Shown here: one piece after another, positions 1-48,063 of the stretch
How positions within the stretch are numbered: position 1 is the first letter of the stretch
Layout of the letters: every line of letters starts with the position of its first letter
DNA from: a virus
IMG/VR virus record: IMGVR_UViG_3300045284_000065
Span: 27,555 to 91,554 of that record
Length of the DNA: 64,000 nt
Strand: one strand, 5' to 3'
Made by a program: the position numbers and the translations under genes
The notes under the pieces: generated by a model
The model's input: the letters and a program-made list of their open reading frames with translations, nothing else
What the model was told of the DNA's origin: nothing
Database searches by the model: none

Positions 1-3000
1 AGTGGTGCCGAAGAGGCCAGACGTTCCCTTGGACCTGATGCCGAAGGTGACCGGCGTGTTCTCGGTGACCGCCGCCGCTGTGTATGTCACCCCGGCCTGG
101 GTCGTCTTCAGGACACCGTTGACATACACCTCGTACTGGTAGCCGCTGCCACCAGTAGCCGCCGTCCATGCCACATGGGCATCCGTTGACGACGACGACG
201 CTGCGTTCACCCCGGTGACATCGGCGGGCTTGGTCACGATGCTCACAATGGCTGAGTACGGTCCACTACCCGCTGGTGTGCCACTAGCCGATCCGTTGAC
301 GCCCTTGATGCGGTACCAGTAGGTCGTGTTGGCAGTGAGGCCTGAGTCGGTGTACGTGGTGAGGCCAACAGTGGTGGTCAGAATGGTCGGCCAGGTCGTC
401 CCGTTGGTCGAGCGCTCCAAGGAGATACCGGTCAGCGCTTCTGCTGCTGTCCACGCAGGCCAGGTGAGCACCACGGCGTAGCCGGTGGAAGCGTTGGCTG
501 CGGTCAGCACCTTCGCCGTCGGTGGCTGCAAGAGGATCTGGGTAGTCTCGAACCAGAGGTCACCAACAGCGACGCCGTTCGCCACCGTGGGCTGCTGGTC
601 ACCGATCCAGATATCAGCAGAGACGGCACCGTCAGTGGCGTGTACCTCCAGGATCTCGGGGTGGCTGTGCCCAAGGGCTGCGTAGGCAATGTCACCCTCG
701 GTCGGGGTGAGATACTGGGGGTGCGGGTCTGGCTGGGCAACGTGGAGGGCGACCGCCCCGAGCTTCTCGTAGAGGAGATCGTGGTTGTGGACGATGGGGG
801 CGTAGAGATCATCCGCTTCGTCCTCGGTGAGGTAGAGGCCTGCTGCTTCATCTGCGTCGAGGTACTGGGAGTGAGGATCGTTGTAGACCTGCCCCGCCGC
901 TGCCAGGGTGACCGGCACGGTGTATCCGGGCGGTGCCGTCGTGCCATAGGTGATGCTGATCAGCGTGGGGTCTGTCTCGGTGTCGAGCACCGGCCACTTC
1001 TTGTTGAGGGCAGGGTCAACGTTGGTCAGGTTGATGTAGCTGTTCGGCAGGATGCTGTGCCGTGGGTCCACCGTCAGGGTGAGCACACCGTTCGGGTTCC
1101 ACGACCAGCCGCTCACCGCCCAAGAGTCCTGGATCTGGTGGTTGATGACCTGCTGACGGATCTCGGCCTGGTGGTTGTGGACGAGGGGTGCGTACTTCAC
1201 CACCTCACCGCTGTCGTCGTACTCCTCCAGGAAGTACTGCGGGTGCGGATCAGCAGCGGCGAGGTGATCCAGCATCACGTTCTTGACGTACGTCTCGGAC
1301 GAGAAGGGGATGTACTGGAAGACCATGTCGGCCAACGTCAGGTCAGTGCCCGCATCGTGGGCCGGGTTCGTCGGGTTGAAGAGGGGGTCGATGGCGATGA
1401 TCCAGTCGCCGTTCGCAAGCTCTGCCTGCTTGTCGGTGCCCACGTCGTAACGACCTGACGCATCGCTGTCGATGAAGTCGAGGACACCGCCCGAACTGCA
1501 CACCCAGTACATGCCGTGGCGATAGACGGTGGGGCCAAGCTCCCAGGAGGGGGCGGGCTTGGCGTGCGTGGTCCGGTATGCCTCGGCGTCGTACGTACCG
1601 ACGTAGAGGAGGTCACCGAGCAGTGCCTCCAACCCCGCCTGAGTGGCGAAGAAGGTGGCGTGGTAGGTGTCGAGCATGTCGGCGTTGATGCCGCTGCTAT
1701 CGACGGTATGACCCTGGTTGCCCTGGTGCCAGACCTTGCTCGTCTTGTACTTCAGGTTGGTGGCGTCAAGCGACATCAGGGCCGTGCCACCAGCACCGGC
1801 AAGCCCAGCGACGTTGTCGTGAGCACCACCCTGGTACCAGTAGAAGGCGGTGTTGGCGCGGGAGTACAGCGTGTCCTGTCCTGCACCGCCTGTGCCCTGA
1901 ATGCCGAAGCCATGCGTGGTGCTGGCGAGGAGCAGGTGCTGACCCTGGCGAGAGCCGAAGGTGAGTTGGGCACCCGTCCCGGTGATGTTCAGGCTGCCCG
2001 GAGTGATCGTGCCGCCCGTCAGTTGGAGGTACCCGGCGACGACTGCCGCTGGCGTGACGGCCACGGTGGCGAGCGGTGAGGCAGCGATGGCCTCGGCCAA
2101 GGTCGACAGGCGAGCGACACCGACGACTGCAGTCGTGGCTGCGGCCACGGTCAGTGATCGGTTGGCCGTCAGGTCACCACCTCCTGCGAGTGGTGCCGTC
2201 GTGCTGATGGTGATCGTCTTGTCGGCCTTGCCGTTGGTCAGGGTGCTGAGATCAGTGACGAGGTTGGTGACATCGGCCTCGACGATGTTGGCGAAGGAAC
2301 CGGGGACGCTGGACCCTGCCGACTTGAGGAACTGACCAGTAGTGCCTGGGCTGATCGTCACCTCGGCCGCTGTGACCGTGGCACCGGCAGCGATGATCCC
2401 GTTGGCAATGCTGGTGGTGCTCCGCCCGGTGCCACCGTCAGCCACCGCCACATCCACGCCGCCCGTGGTGTAGAAGTCCGAGTCGGAGTTGGCAATGTTG
2501 AACTGGCTCGCCGTCCCGACGAGGGTGTTACTCGTCAGGTTGATCGTCTTACCGGTGAGCGTCTCGGTACCGGCGAGGGTGGCGAAATCATTATCGGTGA
2601 GGGCGGTGTTGAACTGACTGGTAGTACCAGTCAGCGTGTTGGTGGCGAGGCTGATCGACTTGGCGGTCAGCGTCTCGGTGCCAGCCAAGGTGGCGAAGTC
2701 GTTGTCACTGAGCGCCGTGTTGAACTGAGCGGTGGTGCCCGACAGCGTGTTCGACAGCAGGTTGAGCGTCTTGTTGGTCAGGGTCTGGATGCCAGCCAAC
2801 GTGACGAGCAGCGAGGTGTCAGCGATGCCGTGGACCGTCGTCGTAGCCCCGGTGTGGGCGGTGAAGGAAGCAACCGAGGTGAGGTCGGCGTCAGTCACCG
2901 CCGTGTTGAACTGAGCGAGCGTGCCGCTGACGGTGTTGCTGCCAAGAGCGATCGTCTTGTTGGTCAGCGTCTCGATGCCCGCCAACGTGGCGAAGTCATC

Positions 3001-4503: not shown

Positions 4504-4504
4504 G

Positions 4505-24477: not shown

Positions 24478-25953
24478 TCACGGCCAGGGCGAGATGACGT
24501 TCTGAGTGCTGGGTGCTGCTGCCGTGAGGTACGGCAGGACAGTCGGGGTGGGGGACCAGGGCACCAGGGGCCGAGACTCGTTCCACATCGGGTCCTCCGG
24601 GTAGAGCACGTCGAGGTGGCCGTGGACCGGGATCCCAGCCGGGACCCACTGGTAGGCCAGCCCCTGCAGCGCCGCCTCGTCGTCGGTCAGCGGCGACGAG
24701 GCGTCGACCTTCCAGGCGAACAGCCGACCGAAGGTGGAGTTGCGGAGGTTGTACCAGCAGCTGTAGCTGGCGTGGCGGTTGGACGTGCCGCCGTACCAGC
24801 TGAAGTCCTCGCGCGCCCCGTACGTGGTGTCGCCGTCGAAGTAGGGCCAGTCGTTGCCGTTGTCGGGCAGGTTCCCCGGCTCCACGCACACCTGGTCGAT
24901 GTCGAAGACCCCGGTGGTCAGGGTGGCGTCATACGGCTCGTACTCCAGGCGCAGCATCCCCGACACCGCCTCGCCAGGATCGCGCATGGTGCGGATGTGG
25001 GTGAAGCCTGCGCCGATCAGCCACGACGGAGTCGTCTCACCGTCGCGCAGCGTCTCGTAGCCCCAGTTGGCCATTGACACCCGGTAGTCGTCGTCCCAGG
25101 TGATCAGGCCCAGCTTCAGGACACCAGCGCCGCGCACCTGCATCTGGATCGTCAGGCCTGGTTCGCGGCGACGGCGGTAGGTCAGCGGGAAGACGTTGCT
25201 CTCCAGGATCAGGGGGGTGCCTCCGGTGACACGACCGCAGTTGTTGCCCGCCCCCGGAGGGGGGTCACCGACGAGAGCGATCGACCCATTGGTGCGCCAG
25301 AAGTTCGTCGTCAACTCGAAGCTCGGGTTGGCGATCAGGTTGAGCCGCTGCGGGTAGATCCAGACGTGCTGGGTGCGCGCCGTCTCGAAGGGGATCGGCG
25401 TCCGCTCGATCAGCAGCGTGCCCTCGACAGCGTTGGGCATGGTCCCGGCGTCAGCACCGGCAGACACGTCATCCCAGTAGAACAGCACCCGCTTGTTCGA
25501 CAGGGTGGCGTCGACAGCCGGGACCACGCCATCGTTGGCGTGCATCAGGGGGTTGCCGAGGAACGTGCTGTCGGTGACGAACATCAGGTCGTCCAGCGAC
25601 GATGATCCCTTGTCGAGAGCGAAGCCGACTGCGGCCACTGGTGTCGTCGGCGTCCCCGGAGGGATCACGAAGCGGGAGGAGACGGCGATCTCGGCCACGT
25701 TGCGGGTCGTCCCGGCAGCCTTGGTGATCGTCACCGGCAGGGACGGACCCACGACGTAGGTGCTGCCCCAGCCCAGCATGTTCTTCAGCGTGTCGACCTT
25801 GTTGATACCGGCATATGCCGTAGTCGTCGGGAGGTTCTCGCCCTCGCCCGAGATCAGCGCCGGAGCCTGTGGAAACAGGTACAGCTGGACACTGGCCCCG
25901 GCCCACCCGGCCTTGAGAGTGGAGAGGAACTGCGAGGTGAAGTAGTAACTCAC
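24478..25953 (-). CDS. Minor tail/baseplate protein with a carbohydrate-binding-like domain
   Basis: RLNLIANPSFE...YFDGD motifs; last gene of the baseplate operon. Confidence 0.7.
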   Translation of the reverse strand: MSYYFTSQFLSTLKAGWAGASVQLYLFPQAPALISGEGENLPTTTAYAGINKVDTLKNMLGWGSTYVVGPSLPVTITKAAGTTRNVAEIAVSSRFVIPPGTPTTPVAAVGFALDKGSSSLDDLMFVTDSTFLGNPLMHANDGVVPAVDATLSNKRVLFYWDDVSAGADAGTMPNAVEGTLLIERTPIPFETARTQHVWIYPQRLNLIANPSFELTTNFWRTNGSIALVGDPPPGAGNNCGRVTGGTPLILESNVFPLTYRRRREPGLTIQMQVRGAGVLKLGLITWDDDYRVSMANWGYETLRDGETTPSWLIGAGFTHIRTMRDPGEAVSGMLRLEYEPYDATLTTGVFDIDQVCVEPGNLPDNGNDWPYFDGDTTYGAREDFSWYGGTSNRHASYSCWYNLRNSTFGRLFAWKVDASSPLTDDEAALQGLAYQWVPAGIPVHGHLDVLYPEDPMWNESRPLVPWSPTPTVLPYLTAAAPSTQNVISPWP

Positions 25954-28900
25954 TCCTGCTCCTCTCCGATGAAGAAGGGATCGAACACACCTGGGTCCAG
26001 CGGGCCGATCTTCTCGGCACCGGTATCGGTGGGTCCACCAGGATGCCCTGCCGCTGGGCCGGTCAGGGTGAGGGTCTTGACGAACACGTCCGAGGTGACC
26101 TGCGACGAGTTGCCGACGTAGTAGAGCGAGGCCCCGGAGAAGTGGACGTAGGGCGAGCGACTGGTGTTGGACCCAGCCGCCCGACTGACCACAGCGATCG
26201 CTGGCACGACGTAGGCCCCGTTGGCCGGGACGGTGCCGGATACCGAGGTCGGTGCCCAGTTGCCGACTGTCGGGGTCACCGCCCCCAGCGCCGCCGCCAG
26301 GCTGATGAAGTCATCAGGCCTGCCACCATCCCCGAAGAAGAACAGGAAGGCCTGCATCGACCCGACGCCGAACTCGCTGGCGCAGGAGATGGTGAAGGTG
26401 TACACGTCACCGGGCTTGCACGGTGTGCCCACATCGAAGGGGAGGATCTCCAGTGGTGGATCAGGTGCGATCTGGGTCTGCTTGCCGTCGCCGCAAGTGA
26501 TCAGCAGATCGGCCAGAGCATCGGCTGGACCGGTGTAGACGTGCATCATCCCCTTGCCGCTGGTCGGCCCGGGGTTGTATCCGTAGGTCCCTGAACTGAA
26601 GCCGATCCTGTCGTAGCTCAATGGACTGGCCGGGATGCCAGAGCCGGTGGGCTTGGGGTAGGTGAGGTCGTGGATCCCTGCCCAGTTGCCGGTGCCGTTC
26701 ATGAACTCAGAGTCATCGGGGAGCAGTAACACATTGGGGGACGAGGTGACATCGCAGTCGCACTTGGCCGCTGCATTGACCAGTGACTTCATTCCACCGA
26801 CCGTGCCCCGACCACGGTAGAGGTAGCCGATCGTGCCGACCAGCGCGCGGTAGGAGTAGTCGCCCAGCCCCGGCTCGTACTTCACCCCGAAGTTCTCACC
26901 GATGCGCTGCAGCAGGGAGAGGGGGGTGAAGTCGGTGTGGTACATGTCGAGCGACGACTCGGCGTACTCACGGGTGAGGTCGAACTGGTAGCCGAAGATC
27001 TGCAGCCAGCGCTTCAGGTCGCCGTCGTTGGCCCCGCCGCGCATGTTGTCGTCCAGGTAGCGGTAGTACGGCGGCAGGGCATTCCACAGGTGCTCGGCGT
27101 GATGGTGGTTGCGCGGCAGCAGGCAGCAGTGGATGGCGGAACGCACCCAGTCGAAGCCGACGCGGAAGAACAGGGCGTAGTAGTACCAGCGACCGGGGGT
27201 CAGGCCTGTGGCGGCCGATGTCTCGGGGGAATGAGGGTCGAACTGGTTGGGGGTGAGGATCTCATGGCTGGTGGCGTCGTAGCGATAGCCGGTGGGGTAC
27301 AGCTGCGCCTTGGTCTGCCGCATGATCGCCTGACCGTCGTTGACCGTGGACGGGTAGCCCATAGCGGCGCGGATGATCGTCACCTCGCTCCAGGTGATGT
27401 CGGCCAGCGTGGAGGGCGTCTCCCAGGAGATCGCAAACTGCTCGGGGACGTTCCACTCGATCTCGATGGTGTCGTAGTTGATCGGCTGGGAGTAGAGAGT
27501 GCCCTTGCCGACACCAGCAGGCGTCCACCCCGGCAGGGTCGTCGGATATCGGATGGCCGTCTGCTGGGTGCGGGCATTGGTCGAGCCACGGACGTAGTCG
27601 CCACCTGAAACGGTGGTATCGATGACGCGCTGCACGGTGAAGGCGGGCTGGTCCCACCACTTCGACGTGTCGTCCGTCTCGGTACCGGGCCACCACGGAC
27701 GGTTGAGGGAGGGCGGCGAAAGCTCCGTCACCGGCCCGACCGGTGCCGGAGTGAGCACAGTCGACGGCCCGTCCTCGCCGCGCACCAGGGTGGTAGTCGG
27801 CCCCTGGGGTGACGGGAGGATGGTGGTCGTAGGACCAGGCAGTGACGGCTCCAGGTCCGAGGTGGGGCCAGGAGCGGACGGCTGGACCTTCATGGTGCGG
27901 CTCGCGCCGACCGGCTCTAGCACCACGTTCTCTCCGGTGAAGGCGGTGAAGGCACCCGAGTCGGCTGCGATCCCGGCGAAGGAGTTGATGTTCCAGCCGA
28001 ACTTCTCGGTCCCACCGGGGACGTTGTTGGCCCCGATGCCGTTGGTGATCGACACGTTGGAGAGCCAGCCCCGCATGGACAGCGTGCCGTCCTCGGCCCC
28101 ACCGAAGGTCACCTGCTCGGTGTCCATGTACAGGGCGGTGACGTTCTCGAAGACGAGGGGGTCGCCCTGGGCCACCCAATCGGTCGGCAGCGGGACCAGC
28201 GGGGTGCCCACCGGGGTGAGCGCCTCGGGTGCGGTGAAGAAGGTCACCGTGGCGTCCGTGGTGGAGTAGTTCGTCGTGATCGCCAGCCAGCCCCAGTCGA
28301 CGTTGTCGTCGTCCCACACATCAGCGAGCACAGCGTTGATGTCGTCGGTCATCCCATCCGAGGAGGCGTGGAAGCTGAACTCAGTGCCCTTACGACGCAG
28401 CGAGAAGCTGCGCCCGAGTGGGGTGACATCACCGGTCGATGCTGTCGAGGCGACGTTGGCGTTGATCTTGGCGTAGGTGAACGTCGTCGTGGTCGGAACT
28501 GTCGTGATCGTGACAGTCCCGTCGAAGGGAGCGCCGACGCCGGTCACGATGACGGCGTTGCCGACCGCCAGCTTGTGGGGGTCCTTCGTGGTGATGGTCG
28601 CCACGTTCGTGGTCAGCTGCTTGTTCAGCACCTTCGACGCTGGCGTGGTGTTCCACTTCTGGACGAGCACCTGCTCAGTGGTGAGCAGCTTGCCCGTGAA
28701 GTTCACCCTGACCATGAGGGTGAAGTCGCTGGTCACGGTCGAGAGGTTGGGGACCGTGGCCCGGCAGTACTCGCCACTTACGCCATCGAACGATACATAT
28801 CCCGATATGGTCGGCGTGCTCGACTGATGCAGCGTGATGGTCTTGCCCCACTGCTCGTTGAACACCGTCGTGGCGGTCGGGACCCGCAGGGACTCCTGGT

Positions 28901-31900
28901 CCATGCGGAACATCTCGATGTTGGTGGCGTCGTTGTAGATCCTCAGGTTGGCGATGCGCCCACCGAACCAAGAGGTGTCACCCTCGGTCGCACCGATCCA
29001 GAACGGCCCGTTGCCCTGCACCAGACCCGAGGTGGGGTAGTTGGTCACGATCGGCTGGCCGATAGCGACCCAGCTGTCGCCGTAGTCGAGCGTCTCGAAG
29101 AGGCGCAGGCTCTGCTGATTGGGCACCGTCATGTCCACTGCCAGCCTGAGGTAGCGGTACTCCCCATTGACCGGGCCAGCGATGGGCCGGGTGGTCGAGG
29201 TGTATTCGATGGAGCCAGACGAGTTGGTCCAGGTGAACAGCAACTCACCGTTGGGCGACAGGCGCACCAGGTAGGAGTGGTTGTTGCCCGCCGACCAGCG
29301 TCCGAAGAGAGTCTGAGCCGGTCCCTCGGAGTGGGATGTCGGCGGGTCCTCCGAGTCCACTACCAGCTGACCGGTCCAGCGATCGGCGGCGAGTCGGATG
29401 TCGATGGTCATCGACCCGGCGATGGCAGGGAAGCCGCCAGCCGGGACGGTGGCGTAGTTGCCGAGGGTCCCGGGGAAGTAGAGGTAGCCGGGGTTGGGCG
29501 ATGTCTCGATGGCGGTCTGCGTCTTCACGATGGTGACGGTCTGACCGGTCACGGCCTTGAAGCTGGTCGCCGCTGGGTCGATGGCCAAGCAGGTCTGGTC
29601 GATCAGCAGCGCCTCAGTGTTCTGGATCGGCACGCCACCCGGATCGAACGAAGTGCGGAACGAGACGTTGCTGATCGCCCCGTCGAAGAAGTTGCCGATG
29701 ACCAGCGTCGCTATCGAAGCGAACATTGGACCGGAGGTGGGCGTCTCGGAGAGTCGGGTCCAGGTCCGGTTGTCATCGGAGGTCCAGAAGCGGACGTAGT
29801 TGCTGGTTCCGGCCTCGAAGGAGACGGCCACCCGCTTGGCTGCCTGGGCCTGCAGCCCCAGCGCCGGGGACTCCACGACGTTGTCGTAGTTGTTGCCGTT
29901 CGATGACCAGTAGAACAGCAGGGTCCCCCGGCTGGAGAGCAGGAAGGACCAGCCGACGAGGCCAGCGCTGCCCGACTTGGTCATGATCGCCCGGTTGCGC
30001 CGCGGCGGCGTCCAGTCGTTGGCGATCAGGCGGGCCTCCACCACGAACGAGGTGTTGTCCTGGAAGGCCGTCTCGTTGGGGACAGTGAGGAAGTTGCTCT
30101 CGGTCCCCGGCAGCACGATGTAGCCGAAGTCGACCGGGACGTAGTCACGCCGCACCGTCGCCGTGCCACCCTGCAGAGCGAGCGTGCCAGCCTGAGGGTT
30201 GGCCGGGATGTGCTCGGAGGCCAGGCGCAGCATCTCCAGGGAGGTCGACTGAGTCGACCCGTAGATGGACAGCCCGTAGAGACGCCCGTCGTACTGCGCC
30301 CCGATGACCAGTGGCGATGTCGAGTTGAAGACGGTGCCAGTCAGGCCACTCTGGCGCGTCCCCAGCGGTGCCCAGGTGACGCCGCTGTCGGGGGAGAGCC
30401 AGAAGTCCACGACCCGGACACCGCCGACGATGTCAGTGTCGATCCGCACCACCTGGCGGCTGGTGCTCGCTGGCACCGGCTGGGTGCAGGTCAGCGTGTA
30501 GAAGACCGTGCCGTCGATGGAGTAGAGGAACTGCAGACACCCGTTGATGTCCATCATCACGGCGTAGCCACGCTGGCCCGCCGCTGCCCACTTCGAGATG
30601 ATGGTCTGAGCGGTGTAGGGCAGCCAGGAGCGCGGGAGGATGCCGAAGACGAATGAGGTGGGGCCGGTGATCTCCAGGGTCGCAGCGTCGGCAATCACCA
30701 GGTCGTTGCCGAGCGTCCCGGGGAACAGGATGTAGCCGGTGCCCTTCGGTGCCGGGTTGCGGTAGACGGTGATGGCCTGGCCGGTCGCCGCTGTCAGAGC
30801 AGTGCTGGTCGATGTGACGGCGTTTCCCTGAGCGTCGTTGATGAAGTTGTCGGCGTTGAGGCCAAACACCTCGGTGCCCTCCACCGGCAGCGCTCCGGTC
30901 CCCGTGCGGATAGAGACATATCCAATGTCCCCGTCGATCGACGGCCCAGTGGGGACCGACCCCGAGGTCCAGCCCGAGCCGATCCGCAGCGGGTTAGTGC
31001 TGTTGCCGATCGCAGAAGCACCCACGGTGACGCTGAAGCTCGCCGTCCACGACGCTGCCGCAGGAGGGGTGAGGCTGTCGGTCAGCGAGTACCACACCTT
31101 GTGGTTCACCACCCCGGTGGGGTCGTAGAAGATGCTGTACCAGACCCACTGCTCGTTGGCGTCGATGGTGGTGCGGCTAGTAGCCCTGAAGTAGGAGGAG
31201 TCGTTGGGACCCCAGGAGAACAACAGGCCATATGGGCCAGTCACCACCCGATAGACCAACCCCTTGCCGACCGGGACGCTGAAGTGGTTGGGCACCGTGT
31301 CCCGCTGACGCATCCGCAGGATGATGTACATCGGCGTGATCACGTCGAGAGCGGTGGCGTCGGGCGTCTCCATGTAGTTGCCGGTCGTGCCGGGGAAGGT
31401 GGCGTACCCCTGCCCGATCGCCTTGGGCGTGCGGACGACGGTCACGACGGTGTTGACCGGCCCCACCGAGGGAGCGAATGACGTGGCATCGGGGACCACC
31501 CCAGCCAGGTCCTGATTCCCGTCGAAACGAATCGCCTCGACGCCGCTGTCCGCTTCGGACATGTAGTACACGCGCCCGACGAAGGGAGAGAGGCCGCTCG
31601 TCGTGTTGTTGCCGATGAGTACCTGGCCCGACTGGGTGAGCAGAGGGGTGGTCCCGGCATTGGCCCCGGTGACCGGGGTCCCCAGCTGGATCCAGGTGGC
31701 CTTCAGCGGGTCGATCTCGTTGTCGAAGGAGTACCAGTAGGTGCAGACCGCCGAGGAGATCACGACCTGGCCCCGGATCCAGATGTCCTTGTCGATGGCG
31801 ATGCCGGGGATATCAGCGTTGGCAGCGACGCCACCGATCGGTGCCACCGAGGTGTTGAGGACGCCGACAACAGGCCGGTTGGTGGACTGGATGCTGAGAT

Positions 31901-32090
31901 AGGCGTGGGTGCTGTTCCACCCGCAGATCGGTCGGTTCAGGCTGCTCAGAGCACTGAAGCGGACCCGCACGGTGAACTGGAGCGAAGTGGGTGGCGACGC
32001 CAGGTTGGCGCGATCGATCCTCGCGTAGTTGCCGACCTGACCTGGGAAGTACAGGTAGCCGGGAGCGTCGACAGGGAAGGCGAGAGGCAT
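25950..32090 (-). CDS. 2046-aa baseplate wedge (P2 gpI-like) protein with six LamG/ConA-like N-terminal domains
   Basis: Six GYxxFPGxxGNY-initiated repeats; HLWNALPPYYR..DLKRWLQIFGYQFD...YRGRGTVGG wedge motif; follows the baseplate J gene. Confidence 0.8.
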   Translation of the reverse strand: MPLAFPVDAPGYLYFPGQVGNYARIDRANLASPPTSLQFTVRVRFSALSSLNRPICGWNSTHAYLSIQSTNRPVVGVLNTSVAPIGGVAANADIPGIAIDKDIWIRGQVVISSAVCTYWYSFDNEIDPLKATWIQLGTPVTGANAGTTPLLTQSGQVLIGNNTTSGLSPFVGRVYYMSEADSGVEAIRFDGNQDLAGVVPDATSFAPSVGPVNTVVTVVRTPKAIGQGYATFPGTTGNYMETPDATALDVITPMYIILRMRQRDTVPNHFSVPVGKGLVYRVVTGPYGLLFSWGPNDSSYFRATSRTTIDANEQWVWYSIFYDPTGVVNHKVWYSLTDSLTPPAAASWTASFSVTVGASAIGNSTNPLRIGSGWTSGSVPTGPSIDGDIGYVSIRTGTGALPVEGTEVFGLNADNFINDAQGNAVTSTSTALTAATGQAITVYRNPAPKGTGYILFPGTLGNDLVIADAATLEITGPTSFVFGILPRSWLPYTAQTIISKWAAAGQRGYAVMMDINGCLQFLYSIDGTVFYTLTCTQPVPASTSRQVVRIDTDIVGGVRVVDFWLSPDSGVTWAPLGTRQSGLTGTVFNSTSPLVIGAQYDGRLYGLSIYGSTQSTSLEMLRLASEHIPANPQAGTLALQGGTATVRRDYVPVDFGYIVLPGTESNFLTVPNETAFQDNTSFVVEARLIANDWTPPRRNRAIMTKSGSAGLVGWSFLLSSRGTLLFYWSSNGNNYDNVVESPALGLQAQAAKRVAVSFEAGTSNYVRFWTSDDNRTWTRLSETPTSGPMFASIATLVIGNFFDGAISNVSFRTSFDPGGVPIQNTEALLIDQTCLAIDPAATSFKAVTGQTVTIVKTQTAIETSPNPGYLYFPGTLGNYATVPAGGFPAIAGSMTIDIRLAADRWTGQLVVDSEDPPTSHSEGPAQTLFGRWSAGNNHSYLVRLSPNGELLFTWTNSSGSIEYTSTTRPIAGPVNGEYRYLRLAVDMTVPNQQSLRLFETLDYGDSWVAIGQPIVTNYPTSGLVQGNGPFWIGATEGDTSWFGGRIANLRIYNDATNIEMFRMDQESLRVPTATTVFNEQWGKTITLHQSSTPTISGYVSFDGVSGEYCRATVPNLSTVTSDFTLMVRVNFTGKLLTTEQVLVQKWNTTPASKVLNKQLTTNVATITTKDPHKLAVGNAVIVTGVGAPFDGTVTITTVPTTTTFTYAKINANVASTASTGDVTPLGRSFSLRRKGTEFSFHASSDGMTDDINAVLADVWDDDNVDWGWLAITTNYSTTDATVTFFTAPEALTPVGTPLVPLPTDWVAQGDPLVFENVTALYMDTEQVTFGGAEDGTLSMRGWLSNVSITNGIGANNVPGGTEKFGWNINSFAGIAADSGAFTAFTGENVVLEPVGASRTMKVQPSAPGPTSDLEPSLPGPTTTILPSPQGPTTTLVRGEDGPSTVLTPAPVGPVTELSPPSLNRPWWPGTETDDTSKWWDQPAFTVQRVIDTTVSGGDYVRGSTNARTQQTAIRYPTTLPGWTPAGVGKGTLYSQPINYDTIEIEWNVPEQFAISWETPSTLADITWSEVTIIRAAMGYPSTVNDGQAIMRQTKAQLYPTGYRYDATSHEILTPNQFDPHSPETSAATGLTPGRWYYYALFFRVGFDWVRSAIHCCLLPRNHHHAEHLWNALPPYYRYLDDNMRGGANDGDLKRWLQIFGYQFDLTREYAESSLDMYHTDFTPLSLLQRIGENFGVKYEPGLGDYSYRALVGTIGYLYRGRGTVGGMKSLVNAAAKCDCDVTSSPNVLLLPDDSEFMNGTGNWAGIHDLTYPKPTGSGIPASPLSYDRIGFSSGTYGYNPGPTSGKGMMHVYTGPADALADLLITCGDGKQTQIAPDPPLEILPFDVGTPCKPGDVYTFTISCASEFGVGSMQAFLFFFGDGGRPDDFISLAAALGAVTPTVGNWAPTSVSGTVPANGAYVVPAIAVVSRAAGSNTSRSPYVHFSGASLYYVGNSSQVTSDVFVKTLTLTGPAAGHPGGPTDTGAEKIGPLDPGVFDPFFIGEEQE
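27715..27880 (-). repeat. Five 11-aa (33-nt) xxxGPtTtLxP repeats
   Basis: GP codons at 27732, 27765, 27798, 27831 and 27864. Confidence 0.9.
28797..28808. promoter_or_regulatory. ATATC-NN-GATAT palindrome (perfect copy)
   Basis: cATATCCCGATATg inside the 2046-aa gene. Confidence 0.6.
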
Positions 32091-34189
32091 CAGGTGTTCG
32101 CCAAGCCCCCGTCAGCGGTCACCCACAGGCCGTCGTGGATGAACTCGTCGTCGGTGTAGTAGGGCGGGTAGCTGGCCGACGACGCCGACTCGTCGTACTT
32201 GACCGGGTCGATGCGTGGGATGTGCAGGTCGTCCACGATGATGTCCCCCACCTCGCCCACCGTGACCGGCGTCGGGGAGTAGCGCACGAAGGTGAAGTCG
32301 ATCGAGGTGCTGGCGGCAGGCGTGGTGTTGGGCGACGACTTGCGGGCGATGACCACGTCCCAGTCGGCGTACCCCGGCGTTGACGGGACGCCGGTACCAC
32401 CGTGGAGAGTGGCGTTGGAGCGCACGACGTAGTCCCACCACGATCCGTTGGCCGGGTTGCTCAACACGATGTGGTCGCCCACGTCGACACGGCCCAGGTC
32501 CGCCGTGCGGTTGTCACTCCCGGCAGAGGGCGACGTGGTATCCCGATATGAAATGGCGATGTGCAGGAAGTCGGGGTCGGTCGAGGTCGTGTCGTCGTAG
32601 AGCCGGTAGAACGTGGCGGTCGGCTCGGGCGGGCTGGCCCCGGCCTCGAACTTCCACTGGCTGGTGAACATCGTCTCCACCGGCTGGGTGGGAGGCCCGA
32701 GCACCAGAGGGTCGACCACCACGGTGCCGCTCTCGGAGGGCGGGCGTGAGGTGGTCAGCCAGTTGACCTCGGCCCAGTCCACGCCCTGCACAGTGAGCAC
32801 GGCTCGGTAGACATCACCGAGGGTGATGCGGGTGCCGAAGTCGACCATGTCGAAGTCGAGCAGCGTGTGGAGCGTGGAGTCGACCTTGTTGCGAACGTCG
32901 AGACGGTTGAACACCTCGGCCACCTGGATGTTGATCCTGATGAAGACGTTGGTCCACAGGTCCATGCAGTGCAGCGGGCCAGCCACGACGGTGGAGCCGA
33001 TGAGGATCTTGTCCTGCATCGTCTGCTCGACAGAGGTACACAGCCGCTGCATCTGAGCATCGGTGCATTCGTCAGCGCTGGAGGACAGGGTCGGAGCGAC
33101 CCACACCTTGACGGCGGTGTACACCGTGCCATAGGCGACGCTCTTGGCCACTCCTGGCGTCTGCATCGCCAGGTCGGCGTAGTCGTTGAGGGTGACAGCG
33201 CGGCTGCGGATGCGGGCACCGGCCCGGGGGACCGAGAAGCGCATCGATGCCACCGACTCGGCATCGGCTCCACCAGAGGGAGAAGCCGGGTTGGACACCG
33301 TCACCTGCCATGCCTCGAAGAAGCCAGCAATCGGGACGATGGTGGAGATCATCTTGGCCGGGACATCATTGGCCGCTGCGCCGACGCCGTAGCGGTAGGT
33401 GGCGAACAGCTGGGCGTTAGCAGACGGGATCCGGCCCGACGTGTTGTCCCCGAAGCAGATGTGGGTGAAGCCCTGGTCGTCCAGGTAGGTGGTGAACACC
33501 GACTGGGTCGGGCGCGCCGTTGCCAGATCGGTGGTGTAGGTCCACACGACCTGCTGGTAGCCCTCGCTCGACACGATGCGGAGCGACCCGGCGATGATGC
33601 CCTTCTGCGGCAGGGTGAACTCGGTGTTGGCGATACCGAAGGCCACGCCGATCGGCGTGTCCCGCACTGTCACGCCCTCCTGGGCAAGCAGCGTGAACGG
33701 ATCGTCACCAGGGTGGAACGTCACTGCGTTGACAGTCTCGAAGACGATGGTGTCCCCGGCGTTATCCGAAGAGGAGTAGCACCGGGTGCCTGCTGGAATG
33801 GTGAGCGGGTCCTTGGGGTCGGTGGGATCGGGGGTGTAGGGGGTGATGGTCAGGTCCACCGATGCCGCCGCCTGTCCAGTCGGCTTGTAGCCGAGCATGT
33901 CGGCGATGTAGTACACCGACTGGGGCCGAATGGCAGTGGCGAGGAATGACTCACTGGCCGTGCGGTCGATGTAGAAGTTGAGGATGTCACCGAGGTAGGC
34001 GAACAGTTCCAGGATCACCGTGCCGAAGTCGGAGGACTCCCCGGCCGTCGTCCACTCGGGCATGATCGTGTTGGCGAGACGGACCAACTCGGCCCGGAGC
34101 GACGTGAAGTCACGACTGGTGTAGTCGAGGATCAGCTTGTTCTTGAGGCCTTCGTCGTCCAGTGAGACGAGCACGCCGATGTCAGACAC
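32090..34189 (-). CDS. Baseplate J / wedge protein
   Basis: DYTSRDFTSLR..PEWT..SDFG, FGDNTSGRIP, SGGADAES, RAVTLNDY. Confidence 0.92.
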   Translation of the reverse strand: MSDIGVLVSLDDEGLKNKLILDYTSRDFTSLRAELVRLANTIMPEWTTAGESSDFGTVILELFAYLGDILNFYIDRTASESFLATAIRPQSVYYIADMLGYKPTGQAAASVDLTITPYTPDPTDPKDPLTIPAGTRCYSSSDNAGDTIVFETVNAVTFHPGDDPFTLLAQEGVTVRDTPIGVAFGIANTEFTLPQKGIIAGSLRIVSSEGYQQVVWTYTTDLATARPTQSVFTTYLDDQGFTHICFGDNTSGRIPSANAQLFATYRYGVGAAANDVPAKMISTIVPIAGFFEAWQVTVSNPASPSGGADAESVASMRFSVPRAGARIRSRAVTLNDYADLAMQTPGVAKSVAYGTVYTAVKVWVAPTLSSSADECTDAQMQRLCTSVEQTMQDKILIGSTVVAGPLHCMDLWTNVFIRINIQVAEVFNRLDVRNKVDSTLHTLLDFDMVDFGTRITLGDVYRAVLTVQGVDWAEVNWLTTSRPPSESGTVVVDPLVLGPPTQPVETMFTSQWKFEAGASPPEPTATFYRLYDDTTSTDPDFLHIAISYRDTTSPSAGSDNRTADLGRVDVGDHIVLSNPANGSWWDYVVRSNATLHGGTGVPSTPGYADWDVVIARKSSPNTTPAASTSIDFTFVRYSPTPVTVGEVGDIIVDDLHIPRIDPVKYDESASSASYPPYYTDDEFIHDGLWVTADGGLANT

Positions 34190-34197
34190 AGTGACTC

Positions 34198-34659
34198 CTA
34201 GAGGGGTGCGGGCGGAACGGCGTCGTGCAGCGCCTCGATGTGACCCGGCAGGGTCCGACCGAAGAACTCCGACGACGGCAGCGGAATGGTCAACGTGCTC
34301 TCGCCGCCCACCGACGAGGACTGGTAGCTGATCTTCACGTCCACTTCAGCTTCGGGCACACCCGAGGTTTCGATGATGACGTAGCGGATGGAGGCGCGAA
34401 GCAGGACGCGCCCATCGGGACCGGTGTTGGCATTGGCCAAGCGCGTGCGGACGATGGAGGCGGCGTCCTGTCGCTCCAGTTCGTCACGGGGATCGAACAG
34501 CGCCGACTGCAGGTCGCACCCGTAGTGGGGCCGGAAGACACGCTCGCCCTGGTTGGTCATCAGGGCGTCGATCACCTGGCCGCGCACGATCTCGTCGTAG
34601 TTGGTGGTGGTGCCGACCTTGCCGCCCTGCACGCGGAAGGGGACCTGGAGCGCTCTCAT
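34198..34659 (-). CDS. GPW/gp25-family baseplate protein
   Basis: LMTNQGERVFRPHYGCDL. Confidence 0.9.
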   Translation of the reverse strand: MRALQVPFRVQGGKVGTTTNYDEIVRGQVIDALMTNQGERVFRPHYGCDLQSALFDPRDELERQDAASIVRTRLANANTGPDGRVLLRASIRYVIIETSGVPEAEVDVKISYQSSSVGGESTLTIPLPSSEFFGRTLPGHIEALHDAVPPAPL

Positions 34660-35855
34660 ACCAGGCCTCGCAGTCGGGGGTTGTTCCAGGAGGAGACCCA
34701 GCGCTTGTTCTCGTCCAGGCTCAACGAGGGGCGTCCCTGGGGCGGGTCCTGCCGCTCCCAGAAGGGCTTGTAGGGCACCTCGGTGTAGCCAGGAGTGGCC
34801 TCTTTGGTCGGCCGGGTGAGGAACAGCATCGTCTGGTACTGCTGATCGTTGGCGTTGTGACCAACCGCGCGGACGAACCACTTGCCGTCGCCCTCGGGCT
34901 TGAAGTACTTGCTCGACGCCGTGACCACATCGACGCATGACCCCGGCCAGATGTCGGCATCGCCCCATATGCGCGCCACACCCGACTCGGCCCACCCATC
35001 TGCCCTCGTCTGCCAGGCATCGACGTAGACCTGGGCCTCCACCTGGTCGCGGATCAGCTGGGTCGACTCGAAGACGAACCCGGCGAAGTCACCGTCCTGG
35101 GTGATCGTCTGAGCCTCGTTGCCAGTGGTGAAGAAGCCGAACTTGATGCCGAGGTTGTTCTTGAGCATCTCGGAGGTGGCCTGGCTGGAGAAGTCGATCA
35201 GGGTGCGGTCGGTGGTCCCGACGCCGATGCTGCTCTGGCCCGACACCAGGCTGGTGTAGGAACCAGTCTCTCGGTAGGTCTTCAGTGGGTCGATGACCTG
35301 GACCACGCCATAGCGGGTGTACACCGACCAGCCGATCCGCTTGGCGAGGTCAGTGACCATCGTCCAGTCGCTCTCGTCGGTCTGAGCGAGTGCCTCCCAT
35401 ATGTGGGTATGCGATTGCCCTCCCGACCCCAGGCCGCTGTTGTTGACCAGATCACTGATCACCCCGGTCGCCGTGCGGTTGACGAAGAAGCGCGGCTTGC
35501 CCTCGAACATCACCTTGGAGGGACCGAGGATGCTCATCGTGAACGACAACTGGCTGGTCGCCTTCTGCTCGTTGGTGATCTCGGCCACGTAGCCCTGGAA
35601 CAACTCCGTGCGCGGCGGTGCCCCGTAGTAGAAGGAGATGGGCTGGTCGATGATGCCATCAGTCGTCGTCAGCGTGGTGGAGATCACCGACAGCGTCGCC
35701 CCATCGTGCTGGCCCTCGGACACGATCATCTGCAGTTCCTTGGGCACCACGTCGAACGCCGCCCCCTTCAGCTGGGGGCTGAAGACCGGGACCCGGCCGC
35801 GCATCGACCGACCACCGGAGCCTCCCGCAGAGGGGTTGAGGTCAGTCATCGTCAT
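34656..35855 (-). CDS. Baseplate hub (gpD/gp27-like)
   Basis: FQGYV, QTDESDWTMVTDLAKRIG, GKWFVRAVGH. Confidence 0.8.
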   Translation of the reverse strand: MTMTDLNPSAGGSGGRSMRGRVPVFSPQLKGAAFDVVPKELQMIVSEGQHDGATLSVISTTLTTTDGIIDQPISFYYGAPPRTELFQGYVAEITNEQKATSQLSFTMSILGPSKVMFEGKPRFFVNRTATGVISDLVNNSGLGSGGQSHTHIWEALAQTDESDWTMVTDLAKRIGWSVYTRYGVVQVIDPLKTYRETGSYTSLVSGQSSIGVGTTDRTLIDFSSQATSEMLKNNLGIKFGFFTTGNEAQTITQDGDFAGFVFESTQLIRDQVEAQVYVDAWQTRADGWAESGVARIWGDADIWPGSCVDVVTASSKYFKPEGDGKWFVRAVGHNANDQQYQTMLFLTRPTKEATPGYTEVPYKPFWERQDPPQGRPSLSLDENKRWVSSWNNPRLRGLV

Positions 35856-42459: not shown

Positions 42460-44868
42460 TTAGCTGAAGGCCTGGACTTCGTTGGTGAACTGGCTGCTGG
42501 TGATCTGCGTGATCTTGATCACCACGAACTCGGCGGGGTACTCCAGCGCCACGCCGATCTCCATCCGCACCTCGCCCGACGAGATGACGTTGATGGTGTT
42601 GATCGTTGAGTCACACCGGATGTAATACGCCTGGTTGGGCGAGGTGCCCCGCAGGCCTCCGCGCTCCCACAGGGGCCGGAGGATGTTGTCGGCCGTGATG
42701 CGGAGGCTGGACCACAGGCGCTCATCGTTGTTCTCGAAGATGGCGTACTGGGTCGAGCGACGCAGCTGCTCCTTGATGTTGATCAGGGTGCGGCGAGCCG
42801 AGATGTAGTGGTCCGGGCCGTAGCTCTTGCGAGTACGAGCGCCCATGACGCAGATGCCCGCCCCGACCACCGGCCGGATGATGTTGACATCGGCGTGGTT
42901 GAGGTCGCCCAGTTCGGTGTCGGTGAACTTGGCCTGCACGCCCACGGCGTTGGTCAGCGTGGCGATCACACCAGCCGGTGCCCGGTGGAACCCGATGGTG
43001 GCATCGATGCGGGCCATGACGCCCATCACCGCCCCACCGGACGGGATCGGGATGACCGCCCCGACCTGGGTCGGGTGGGGGATCAGGATCCACGGCCCGT
43101 AGCTCGCCGTGTAGGAGGTCTGGTCGTAGATCAGATCGTTCTTCATCTCCACGGCGTAGCTGGAGGTCGCGTAGCTCACCGTGTAGTCCTTGGCCTGGGC
43201 GAAGTCGTTGAAGACCATCACGTCTTCCCGGTCGCTGAAGCTCGACGGGGAGAAGTTCGCCCCGACGAGGACCGACCCACCATCGTTCAACTCACCCGGA
43301 CGATCGCGGAACGTCTCGTCAGCGAGGTAGGAGGCGATGTTGATGACGAGCGGTCCTTCGACCCCACCGAGGTTCATCGGCGCTGTCTGGAGGTCCGAGG
43401 CGGTCGGCCAATCCGGGTCGTCGCCACCGGCCAGGAGCACCTGAGTGAGCTTCTCGACGGGCTGCTCGACGTTGAGGTTGAGGTTGGTGATCCGCACGAA
43501 GCGGGACCCGCCGAGGGAGTCGTTGATGGCCGAGTCGACCCGGCGCGTCCCGGCAAGTTCGCCGCGCACCGAGAGGCCCTGGAACCGCTCCAGCGTCTCG
43601 TAGTTGATCCCATCAGGCTGCAGCTGAAGGATCTCCAGCGAGAAGTTCCTCGGCTCGTTGACGTTGACCCCGAGGCGATAGGCGATCTTGTTGCCCCAGT
43701 CGCCAGCGCTGATGGCGTTGATCCTGAAGGCCGTCAGAGGGGTGGTCGCCCCATCGGTGACGCTCACCTTCGCCGTGGCCCCGTAGGTGCCCGCCGTCTC
43801 GGCCTTGGCCGCTCGCACGATCCAGGCGAAGCGCCCACCGTTCTGGAAGAACGAGTACACGCTGAAGGGCAGGTACGACAGGGCCTTGGGCGCTGCCGTG
43901 GTGACCACGGTGCCGGGGAACTGCCCCGAGGCCCACACCCCGTTGTTGGCACCGATCGTGCCCGACTGCGGACCAGGGGTCCACGCCGTGCCCGACCAGC
44001 TGAAGGCCCAGGGACCGATCCAGATGACCTGGCCCGAGGTCCACGCTGTCGCTGGTACGGCGACGTAGCCCTCACCGGACACACCGGGGACGGTCGTGGC
44101 GACAGTGATGCCAGGCGTGGTGCCGGTCAGGCTGGCGACGTTGACGACGATGGGGCTGACATCTCCGTAGAGGCCACCGCCGTAGGTCACCGTGAACGCC
44201 GTCGTGGCGATCGGGCCACCGGCCACCGTGATGGAGTTGCCGGGGATGGCCGTGTCGATCGCCGCCTTGACCTGCGCGGCGGTGGCGTCCCAGGCGATGT
44301 TGGCCGTGGTCACCCCAAGCGTCGTCAAGGTCCAGGTGCCACCCGAGATGGTGCCCGACTTGGTGAGGGTCTGCACCTCGTTGACCGAGAGCAGCTTGGC
44401 GGCGTTGGTGGCGTCGCTGGCCGTGATGTCGGGGTCGGCGGCAAAGGCCTGACCCGGAGCAGCAGCCTGCCGGTTGGTCGCCAAGGCCGGGAGGTTGTAG
44501 TACGCCTTCGAGTTGTCGCCCAAGCGGACGTACTCACCCGGAGTGTTGAAGTTCGGCGGGCCGACGAACTTGCCGTTGCCCTTGGTGGCGTGCGCCTGCA
44601 GGGTGGTGAAGTTGGTCGGAGCGCCCGAGGGGAACGCGCTCCCGGTGAGGTCGAAGGGATCGGTCCCGGCCGGGGCCGGGATGGCATCGAACCCGCCGAA
44701 GACCGTGAAGTAGTCGCTCCACGATTCGACGAGAAGGGGGGTGTTGACCGGCCCCTTGGGGGCCAGTCCGACGAAGGCGGCAACCGTGGTGGTTCCGGCA
44801 ACGTCGGAGGGGTTCAGGAGGAGAGACTCCTCCAGGTAGACGCCTGGACGGCGGTAGGTGCTGGGCAT
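42460..44868 (-). CDS. Contractile tail sheath protein with nested inserted domains
   Basis: RPGVYLEE, AFVGLAPKGP, FFQNGG, GDWGN, RAPAG, GART, FENND, PAEFVVI. Confidence 0.95.
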   Translation of the reverse strand: MPSTYRRPGVYLEESLLLNPSDVAGTTTVAAFVGLAPKGPVNTPLLVESWSDYFTVFGGFDAIPAPAGTDPFDLTGSAFPSGAPTNFTTLQAHATKGNGKFVGPPNFNTPGEYVRLGDNSKAYYNLPALATNRQAAAPGQAFAADPDITASDATNAAKLLSVNEVQTLTKSGTISGGTWTLTTLGVTTANIAWDATAAQVKAAIDTAIPGNSITVAGGPIATTAFTVTYGGGLYGDVSPIVVNVASLTGTTPGITVATTVPGVSGEGYVAVPATAWTSGQVIWIGPWAFSWSGTAWTPGPQSGTIGANNGVWASGQFPGTVVTTAAPKALSYLPFSVYSFFQNGGRFAWIVRAAKAETAGTYGATAKVSVTDGATTPLTAFRINAISAGDWGNKIAYRLGVNVNEPRNFSLEILQLQPDGINYETLERFQGLSVRGELAGTRRVDSAINDSLGGSRFVRITNLNLNVEQPVEKLTQVLLAGGDDPDWPTASDLQTAPMNLGGVEGPLVINIASYLADETFRDRPGELNDGGSVLVGANFSPSSFSDREDVMVFNDFAQAKDYTVSYATSSYAVEMKNDLIYDQTSYTASYGPWILIPHPTQVGAVIPIPSGGAVMGVMARIDATIGFHRAPAGVIATLTNAVGVQAKFTDTELGDLNHADVNIIRPVVGAGICVMGARTRKSYGPDHYISARRTLINIKEQLRRSTQYAIFENNDERLWSSLRITADNILRPLWERGGLRGTSPNQAYYIRCDSTINTINVISSGEVRMEIGVALEYPAEFVVIKITQITSSQFTNEVQAFS

Positions 44869-44934
44869 TGTCGCTCCTCTGTTGTGACGTGATGACAACG
44901 AGTGCGACGACGTGTGCTACGGGTCTGATGACTG

Positions 44935-46224: not shown

Positions 46225-48063
46225 TCAGGCAGCGGACTCCAAGGCCTCGACGCGCCCGATGATCTCCAGGAGGGTGGCGATGGTCAGCGTGATCGTCTTG
46301 GAGTAGTCGAGCATCTGGTGCTTGGGCGAGCCAGGAGCGACACCAGCGGCCTCGGCCTCTTCGGCCGAGTACACCTCGTCGGGCTGGCCGTCGACCGCCT
46401 CGGGCACGATGTTCATCACCTCGTCAGCGATCAGGGCATCAGTCTCACCGCGGTCGGAGTCGTTGTTCCACGTCACCCGGTACGGCTGGAAGGCCTTGAA
46501 CCGAGCCACCGCACCGAGGATCGGGGACACGATCGTCTTGGCCCGACGATCGGAGGTCTCGTTGAACTTGACCCCGGTGGTGCCGTTCTGAGTGATCGAA
46601 CCGATCGGCGTGGCTCCATAGGCGAACTGGGCGAACATCTGACCGCTGGTAGAGGCGCTACCGATGTGGCGGCAGTAGAGGTTCTGGATGCTGGCTGCCG
46701 AGGTCGTGGTGCGGATCGAACCTTCAGCACCGGAACCAGCGCCGTACATCTCGATCCCAGCGTTGTTGAGGTCCGCTGCTGCCTTGCCCCAAATGAAGGC
46801 GTTGCTCAACATCATGCCCTGGAAGACGCCGTTCGGGGAGAAGTTGATCTGGCCACCGGCACCGGTCTGGAAGGTGATGTCGCCCGCCCCCGTAGTGAGC
46901 AGCCGAAGCAACCCGGTGCTGAGAGCATTGCTAACCCGCAACTCGGTGGTGCCGTTGAAGCCCACATACCCGGCGTTCCCTGTCGGAGCAGCCGTCGTAC
47001 CGCTCCCGTAGAACCCCATGTAGCAGTTGTTGCCGCCAGCCGTGGTGTCGATCAGGACGACCTGCCCACCGTTGCCCCCGGCACGAATCTGAACGCCCGA
47101 GTAGATGTAGCTGTTGACGGCGGCGGTACCCGAAGCAGTGAGGTTGCCGGTGATGTCGACACCCAGGTTGTCGACGTGAAGCTTCTCAGCGTTGGCAACG
47201 AAGAACCGGTGGACCGACGTGGTCAACTCGGCGGCGTAGTTCATGTATCCCGGCATTCCCTGGATGTATCCAAACCGGGTGCTGCCCACCACCGGGTTGA
47301 ACTGAATGAAGGGAGCGTCACCGCCACGGGTGAAGTACAGAGGGCCGGTCATCGTGTCGCCAGCGACGGCCACGCGCGCACCATCGCCAGCGGCGATCTG
47401 CGCGTCGACATAGTCCTTGCGAGCGGCGGCGTTGGCCGTGGTGTCCTGGGCCGCAGTGCAGAGGAACCGGGTCGCCTGCATGCTCCCTGCCGCCGAGACC
47501 ATGGAGGAGAACGCTGCCGTCCCGACCACCTTGAGGTTGCCTGCCGACAGGGTCAGCACGTCGGCACCGGCCGCACCGTTGAGGGTCAACGACGGGGCCA
47601 GGATCGGGGAGTCCGAGATGAGGTTGGCAGGAGAGGTCGTCAGCTTGGCCGTGCGGTTGCCACCGCCCGCAGCGGTGAAGACCGACACCGTGTCGGCCTG
47701 GAACCCGGCCGAGGTGACGAAGTCGATCGAGGAGCGCAGCTTGGTGTTGGAGAACACCAACCCGGCACCGCTCGCGCTGATGTGAGCGAACGTCGCCGTA
47801 CCTGTCGCCCCGGTACCCGAGGAGACGAGACGCACCAAGCGCGACGACAGCAGGGGGATCCACTCCCCTGACCACACGCTGACGGTGTCGGTGGACTGCA
47901 CGTAGACGGCCTGCCCAGTCTGCGGGTTGGCAGGACGCGAGGCGTCGTCGGCATATCGCAATATGCCGCGGTACTGAAGAAAGTCACCGTCCTCCTTGCG
48001 CCAGTTGTGGGTCCAGTTGATCCACCCTGCCGGGCCATAGGTGGTGGGGAGCGGTTCAGCCAT
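46225..48063 (-). CDS. Fibre protein with a C-terminal intramolecular chaperone (peptidase S74-like)
   Basis: AARKDYVD, VAGDTMTG, TSDRRAK...LIADEV...PEAV...DYSK plus a coiled-coil end. Confidence 0.85.
   Translation of the reverse strand: MAEPLPTTYGPAGWINWTHNWRKEDGDFLQYRGILRYADDASRPANPQTGQAVYVQSTDTVSVWSGEWIPLLSSRLVRLVSSGTGATGTATFAHISASGAGLVFSNTKLRSSIDFVTSAGFQADTVSVFTAAGGGNRTAKLTTSPANLISDSPILAPSLTLNGAAGADVLTLSAGNLKVVGTAAFSSMVSAAGSMQATRFLCTAAQDTTANAAARKDYVDAQIAAGDGARVAVAGDTMTGPLYFTRGGDAPFIQFNPVVGSTRFGYIQGMPGYMNYAAELTTSVHRFFVANAEKLHVDNLGVDITGNLTASGTAAVNSYIYSGVQIRAGGNGGQVVLIDTTAGGNNCYMGFYGSGTTAAPTGNAGYVGFNGTTELRVSNALSTGLLRLLTTGAGDITFQTGAGGQINFSPNGVFQGMMLSNAFIWGKAAADLNNAGIEMYGAGSGAEGSIRTTTSAASIQNLYCRHIGSASTSGQMFAQFAYGATPIGSITQNGTTGVKFNETSDRRAKTIVSPILGAVARFKAFQPYRVTWNNDSDRGETDALIADEVMNIVPEAVDGQPDEVYSAEEAEAAGVAPGSPKHQMLDYSKTITLTIATLLEIIGRVEALESAA

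Follow-up and report, generated by a model that had tools for sequence, protein, structure and literature searches.

The window analysed here, a stretch of 64,000 nucleotides (nt) of the virus record IMGVR_UViG_3300045284_000065 (IMG/VR; positions 27,555 to 91,554 of a record of 91,554 bp with a completeness estimate of 79%), belongs to an uncultured, contractile-tailed phage with a genome of ~116 kb and 64-65% G+C. Nearly all long open reading frames (ORFs) of the window lie on its minus strand, the G+C content amounts to 63-66% along the whole window, and a contractile tail module (sheath, gp25-like and gp6/J-like proteins) was recognised by PHROG scans. The gene under study (25950-32090) directly follows the gp25-like and gp6/J-like wedge genes, in the placement of a P2 gpI-type gene, and encodes a protein of 2046 amino acids (aa): Six LamG-like domains (D1 to D6) are succeeded by an array of 11-residue units and by a baseplate wedge module (see Table 1 for coordinates). 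We lean slightly towards the reading that the domains form a full six-level nest, in which the chain would run outwards through D1 to D6 and return through six units that close D6, D5, D4, D3, D2 and D1 in that order.

The six homologous domains of ~210 aa with GYxxFPG starts, as proposed in a preliminary description made from the sequence, are indeed present: The first residue of each domain in Table 1 (on the minus strand its highest nucleotide coordinate) is that of a GYxx[FL]xG motif, at most 3 nt from the position claimed earlier, and the homology is significant. In hhalign comparisons of the orthologue sets (eight homologues), all pairs of domains were matched with E-values of 2e-8 to 2e-32, and the six segments could be aligned over their entire length; D3, D4 and D5 are mutually closest in these profile-profile comparisons, D6 is the most divergent, and D1 matches D2-D5 with E about 1e-17. 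The N-terminus is held in common with homologues of 1929-2155 aa. Four strands are discernible towards the domain ends, GR-I/V-x (a), E-x-F-R-x-D (b), A-T-x-F (c) and G-Q-T-V-T-V (d), and a two-strand hairpin of the type ATxF....GQTVTV stands at every domain end, as had been described, with the next domain following directly. The alternative assignment of this hairpin to the following domain (as circular permutation of the canonical N-terminal hairpin of Laminin_G_3) was considered and rejected; it was assigned to the preceding domain because the single-domain homologue P0018 keeps the hairpin after its domain and because the alignment rows of D6 include it.

The LamG-type identity of the domains was less evident from sequence comparison than from the fold. 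Against Pfam PF13385 (Laminin_G_3), the whole protein scored 17 bits, below the cut-off of 27.6, and two of the six domains gave a match when scanned singly (best E 2.7e-7); the first 154 aa of D4 covered Laminin_G_3 positions 4-138 of 151 (E 0.016). Since a six-domain sequence profile yielded only a weak match to the C-terminal sandwich of GH43 (E 0.1) among the PDB sequences, a fold comparison was needed: In AlphaFold2 models and structural alignments, the modelled domains are predicted to form jelly rolls of two sheets, which can be superposed on solved LG, LNS and pentraxin domains.

Self-contained relatives of these domains possess a closing strand (e) 4-6 residues after strand d, e.g. 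TMKVQP after D6, PKLILVQ in P0018 and RVSLVSS in P0162. The short closing strand reported earlier after the GRTWTL of the LamG-like domain in the 1957-aa protein of the same window was likewise found there (AGIVVAG). D1 to D5 are without such a local closing strand: Strand d is followed by 7-11 residues and then by the first strand of the next domain. The preliminary proposal that each domain had been inserted into the terminal hairpin of the previous one has to be corrected slightly, as the two strands of the hairpin are uninterrupted in all six domains; what separates the hairpin from a third, closing strand is the next domain.

The five tandem 11-aa units announced after the sixth domain are located at aa 1405-1459 (nt 27878..27714) and conform to the consensus S-P-P-G-P-T-T-x-[L/I]-x-P. 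Five GP dipeptides spaced exactly 11 residues apart, as in these units, arose in 0 of 20,000 shuffles of the protein, and the array is unique of its kind within the window (all six frames). Among 8 homologues of 35-84% identity, in all of which the five-unit array is kept, position G4 is conserved in 38/40, P5 in 36/40 and L/I9 in 37/40 units; the array length is constant with the exception of one extra residue in P0015, which is unlike the behaviour of a free linker. No DNA-level repeat underlies the units (Tandem Repeats Finder), so that they are old and not a recent product of slippage. The preceding segment VGASRTMKVQP keeps the 11-aa register (T6, V9, P11) and is best regarded as a sixth unit, "unit 0"; it contains the GASRTMKVQP that had been proposed as the closing segment of the sixth domain, and D6 is indeed closed by the unit 0 strand in both AlphaFold2 models. 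The outgoing linkers measure 7-11 aa and the return linkers 6 aa, similar lengths that make an out-and-back geometry feasible.

Table 1. Features of the 2046-aa protein gene and of the neighbouring tail genes (nucleotide positions refer to the window).
Feature	Residues (aa)	Position (nt)	Strand	Basis
Whole gene, 2046 aa: proposed six-domain arm and return strands, wedge module		25950..32090	minus	ORF list, translation
D1, LamG-like, outermost level of the proposed nest	11-227	31410..32060	minus	motif, alignment
D2	228-451	30738..31409	minus	motif, alignment, hhalign
D3	452-655	30126..30737	minus	
D4	656-867	29490..30125	minus	Laminin_G_3 match; pentraxin structural alignments with the unit-2 strand
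D5	868-1096	28803..29489	minus	single-domain LG, LNS and pentraxin targets extend over D5 and the unit-1 strand (both models)
D6, innermost, presumably distal; carries the ~75-aa mini-domain insert	1097-1393	27912..28802	minus	
Unit 0, VGASRTMKVQP, D6's own closing strand	1394-1404	27879..27911	minus	strand at aa 1401-1403 in both models, pLDDT 70-80; complete-pentraxin alignments of D6 end here
Unit 1, predicted last strand of D5	1405-1415	27846..27878	minus	strand with pLDDT about 80 in both models; target C-termini align here with D5
Unit 2, predicted last strand of D4	1416-1426	27813..27845	minus	ordered with D4 in the construct, disordered without D4
Unit 3, proposed partner of D3	1427-1437	27780..27812	minus	sequence conserved like units 1 and 2; pLDDT <50 with D3 present
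Unit 4, proposed partner of D2	1438-1448	27747..27779	minus	conserved G4, P5, L/I9; D2 in neither model
Unit 5, proposed partner of D1	1449-1459	27714..27746	minus	aligns to the PKLILVQ strand directly after the D1-like domain of P0018
Wedge module, P2 gpI-like, 587 aa	1460-2046	25953..27713	minus	relatives; Pfam Tail_P2_I in stand-alone homologues; weak PHROG match
Baseplate wedge subunit, gp6/J-like, upstream neighbour		32090..34189	minus	phrog_219, E 3.8e-36
Baseplate wedge subunit, gp25-like		34198..34995	minus	phrog_43, E 2.3e-8
Tail sheath		42460-44898		PHROG scan

A relative with a single domain is P0018, a protein of 787 aa present on three contigs that consists of D1, one unit and the wedge module. 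Its residues 6-203 match aa 3-208 of P0001 (D1) with 38% identity (E 4e-34) and its residues 222-771 match aa 1453-2017 (unit 5 and wedge module) with 39% identity (E 2e-126); in two collinear blocks, P0018 thus corresponds to P0001 with a gap from aa about 209 to 1452. Directly after D1, P0018 has the equivalent of unit 5, whereas 1,240 residues intervene in P0001. All nine large homologues contain six strand-deficient domains and six units, and their extra domains are of the self-contained type and placed in loops. Homologues with two to five domains were found neither in the near-length region search nor with the P0018 N-terminus, with D1 at shorter lengths, in IMG/VR or in the JGI metagenome contigs; the D1-like domains in P0161-P0163 proved to be parts of other proteins, and the six-domain arm with units occurs in only about ten proteins of the databases searched.

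The similarities among units and among domains agree with the reverse order. When unit k was mapped to D(6-k), the unit-unit similarities were correlated with the domain-domain similarities (r = 0.91, rank 5 of 720 permutations), whereas the forward mapping of units to domains ranked 135 of 720; every top permutation paired unit 0 with D6, units 1-3 with D3-D5 and units 4-5 with D1-D2. These mirrored similarities lend weak support to a co-duplication of each domain with its strand, with which they would fit.

For the structural analysis, two single-chain AlphaFold2 models were compared: model 1 comprises aa 452-1500 (D3-D6 and the units), model 2 aa 868-1500 (D5-D6 and the units). In model 1, units 0, 1 and 2 form strands (predicted local distance difference test, pLDDT, 70-81) and the order ends precisely where unit 3 begins; in model 2, which holds D5 and D6 only, units 0 and 1 are ordered (pLDDT 80-82) and the order stops inside unit 2. 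The loss of order in unit 2 without D4 indicates that this unit needs something upstream of D5. The structural alignments are in line with this: More than 20 single-domain targets, among them pentraxins, align to positions 203..975-980 of model 1 over only about 180 residues, i.e. to D4 plus the unit-2 strand, and more than 10 targets align to 413-417..963-968, i.e. to D5 plus unit 1; six targets align to 1..548-552 of model 2 over 168-178 residues (again D5 plus unit 1), and the D6 alignment rows of this model end at unit 0. As the aligned ranges reach the C-termini of the targets themselves, each unit sits at the place of the target's last strand. D3 aligns alone (1..198 of model 1, 150 residues); its sequence YVPVDF was tried as its own closing strand and rejected, being of low confidence and aligning as the start of D4. 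At the level of these models, the data support a predicted complementation in reverse order for the three innermost levels (D6/unit 0, D5/unit 1, D4/unit 2). Of the earlier suggestion that the returning chain donates the missing last strand to domains 5 to 1, the pairs D5/unit 1 and D4/unit 2 are thereby reproduced in the models, including the predicted dependence of unit 2 on D4; D3/unit 3 did not dock.

Several observations weigh against the full nest. Unit 3 is disordered (pLDDT <50) although D3 is part of the construct, and its docking to D3 is not seen; the two models cover D3 to D6, and a docking of units 4 and 5 to D2 and D1 is only proposed. The contacts were deduced from the first and last aligned residues of the structural alignments, not from coordinates, the alignment behind the models comprised n=9 sequences, and the predicted template modelling scores (pTM) are low with 0.43 and 0.55; moreover, AlphaFold2 is known to place strand-prone nearby tails on open sheet edges. 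A single contiguous deletion would likewise account for P0018, and the domain:unit counts among the homologues take only two states, 1:1 (P0018) and 6:6 (nine proteins). The similarity test, finally, was performed on units of 11 aa and owes much of its result to one outlier pair, D6/unit 0; when this pair is left out, the reverse mapping ranks 6 of 120.

The failure of unit 3 leads to a first alternative, according to which the nest is partial: Units 0-2 would close D6, D5 and D4, whereas units 3-5 would constitute a structured tether to another partner, for instance a fibre, the gp6-like ring or the wedge module, with D1-D3 being stable without a closing strand. We regard this as unlikely. 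Units 3-5 share the G4/P5/[LI]9 signature with units 1-2, D1-D3 are devoid of a local closing strand just as D4 and D5 are, and the equivalent of unit 5 stands directly after D1 in P0018. In addition, the hairpin region of D3 has the lowest pLDDT of the four modelled domains (63-67), and the failed docking of unit 3 to D3 may therefore be technical, yet it is a real failure of the prediction. In the full nest, units 3-5 would dock in the same manner as units 0-2.

The shallow alignment and the low pTM values speak for a second alternative, a modelling artefact, in which six self-sufficient domains are joined to the wedge module by a stiff, proline-rich spacer of fixed length and AlphaFold2 parks the nearest units on open edges; a greedy docking of nearest neighbours would likewise yield the reverse order, and the stand-alone wedge proteins do without the units. 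This alternative appears quite unlikely to us, since a docked strand would account for the invariant residue 9 of buried type and for the beta-branched residues 6-7, the length of the array does not vary among homologues of 35-84% identity, and the self-contained relatives carry a strand at exactly the position of the units. Besides, unit 1 docked to D5 in two separate runs, and the similarity matrices of units and domains are congruent.

A third alternative likewise starts from units 3-5, which are without a partner in their own chain in the model: Some return strands, e.g. these three, might close domains in the arm of the neighbouring wedge and join six arms into a ring, as pilins are joined by donor strands. 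In baseplates of the P2/T4 type, the wedge protein is expected in six copies around the baseplate, which would suit such an exchange between subunits; units 1 and 2, however, dock within their own chain, and the strand directly after its domain in P0018 favours closure within a single chain. The exchange is thus considered highly improbable. Its specific form, in which D1-D3 receive their closing strands from units 3-5 of the neighbouring wedge and donor-strand exchange joins the six arms into a covalent-like collar around the baseplate, is very improbable as well; if it existed, the collar would have to unzip or rearrange at the baseplate switch on host contact.

According to the full nest, the first 1,460 residues would constitute a peripheral arm of six jelly rolls of the LamG/pentraxin type. 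D1 to D5 would each end with the terminal hairpin of two strands and thus lack one strand for a closed sandwich, and the chain would pass directly from domain to domain up to D6, which would be complete. From there it would come back via the six units, each closing one domain and consisting of a Pro/Gly turn and a strand of five residues that buries one Leu or Ile. Because the chain would return along the arm, its base would contain both the N-terminus and the start of the wedge module, and D6 with its variable mini-domain would lie at the tip. Such an arm may have grown stepwise, with a new "domain plus strand" module inserted each time directly ahead of the closing strand, and it would probably be stiff and double-tracked; if the reading is true, it would be anchored at both ends, fold in an inside-out order and expose a variable tip. 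A lectin function of the arm is suggested by the fold alone, the putative ligands being glycans of the host cell wall. Tandem ConA-like domains are frequent in phage structural proteins (BFVD); nothing relevant was found in the literature on LamG together with a baseplate wedge or on nested LamG domains.

Two insertions into the arm domains deserve mention. The homologue P0006 harbours a seventh domain, a self-contained LamG of ~213 aa (WRFDA...GKTWTL type), inside the c/d hairpin of D3: The insertion site follows the position of aa 636-644 of the window protein (window about 30160-30185), after which the chain finishes the hairpin. Here, one domain is unambiguously nested within another, on a single level and at the same corner, and its position within the D3 hairpin shows that the domain corner tolerates nested insertion. 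The second is a beta-rich mini-domain of ~75 aa in D6 of the window protein (aa 1149-1227, nt 28410-28646, minus strand; motif ...NVATITT...H.LAVG..V.V.G....FDGT..V..VP....FTYAK), which is absent from the orthologues P0004, P0006, P0008 and P0015. Related inserts are present in the wedge module of P0004 (82 aa, after aa 1605) and in P0060 (after GGDYVRGS). A Pfam scan of the mini-domain gave no match; unrelated beta-propeller proteins with Pfam PF16190 (E1_FCCH) match about 10% of the query, probably via this mini-domain. It looks like a mobile decoration domain.

The wedge module has 616 relatives (exhaustive HMMER search), many of which are stand-alone proteins of 530-680 aa whose first residues correspond to the WWPG motif just after unit 5. 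Pfam PF09684 (Tail_P2_I) matches 8/24 aligned stand-alone homologues (best E 9.9e-7); the window's own wedge module gave no match to Pfam and a weak one to phrog_1160 "baseplate protein" (E 0.0014). As the stand-alone relatives start at WWPG and some of them match Tail_P2_I, the 2046-aa protein is, as judged from these relationships, a gpI-class wedge protein with an N-terminal addition of 1,460 aa and the third wedge protein of the phage's baseplate; the units belong to the N-terminal addition and not to the wedge module. Other decorations of the module were observed as well: P0016, P0045 and P0060 are without an N-terminal arm and carry, ~35 residues from the start of the module and behind GGDYVRGS, between one and three LamG domains of the self-contained type, and the N-terminus of P0033 is glycoside-hydrolase-like. 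The sole sequence match of the wedge-module profile (aa about 1680-1750) to a solved structure in the PDB was a 190-aa "Secreted protein" chain (9gtp_E, E 0.0098), possibly a component of the baseplate in a contractile injection system. In the phage GenBank collection, only the wedge modules of the three Streptomyces phages LuckySocke, Alone3 and GiJojo were matched (23% identity); the relatives among isolates are Streptomyces phages only.

Further large genes of the window were noted. The 1957-aa protein (50167-56040, minus strand) is without a PHROG match and carries its self-contained LamG-like domain at ~aa 600-850, ending ...LLWRFDASEY...ARGRTWTLTDPAGIVVAG. The ORF at 1-4665 (minus strand) runs off the window end and encodes at least 1555 aa; its sole match is phrog_30593 (function unassigned; E 9.5e-15, residues 174-236). 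The gene at 46225-48063 (minus strand, 612 aa) is situated upstream of the sheath gene, apart from the baseplate genes; matches to several PHROG families of tail fibres cover its C-terminal 170 residues (best E 2.4e-24).

With regard to known systems, the completion of a strand-deficient beta-sandwich by a donor strand is familiar from chaperone-usher pili, where a different subunit provides the strand, which drives polymerisation, and donor-strand complementation is further exemplified by archaeal cannulae. The arm resembles the pili in that sandwiches without their last strand would be completed by a short strand supplied from elsewhere; it differs in that the strand is predicted, in single-chain models, to come from the own chain and in bracket order. 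The LNS1-6 domains of neurexin-1 alpha, the LG1-5 domains of laminin alpha and the pentraxins, with 10-17% identity to the arm domains, are in contrast contiguous, self-closing domains without an array of return strands. To wedge proteins of the P2 gpI / T4 gp7 class with LamG domains, the protein is linked by its homologous wedge module, by the gene position after the gp25-like and J-like genes and by the decoration of LamG type, whereas most relatives have no N-terminal arm or possess self-contained LamG domains after GGDYVRGS (P0016, P0045, P0060). The closest solved precedent for the nest is the Si3 insertion in the beta' subunit (RpoC2) of cyanobacterial RNA polymerase, which comprises eight sandwich-barrel hybrid motifs, several of which combine segments that lie far apart in the chain (PMC10895346; crystal and cryo-EM structures), and which was named as an extreme case, a six-level recursive insertion, in a 2026 survey of 2.7 million domains (PMC13114784). 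Like Si3, the proposed nest would be an elongated series of homologous domains, with a depth of about six, in which the outer domains are completed by segments after the inner ones. The Si3 motifs, however, are far smaller barrels that are split into sizeable halves and located in the trigger loop of an enzyme, and their nest is solved; here, the nest is predicted, it would consist of LamG jelly rolls of ~210 aa in a baseplate protein of the virion, and a single five-residue strand would return per level, resulting in a regular 11-aa return repeat. New is the combination: large LamG jelly rolls in a proposed nested arrangement, one short strand returned per level as an 11-aa repeat, and the location in a gpI-class wedge protein. 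If true, the nest would equal the deepest recursive insertion singled out in the survey (six levels, Si3) and bear on the question how large phages make stiff receptor-binding appendages and extend them module by module; N strand-deficient domains followed by N short units would provide a sequence signature for such arms elsewhere, and the principle might be adopted in the design of rigid, extensible display scaffolds.

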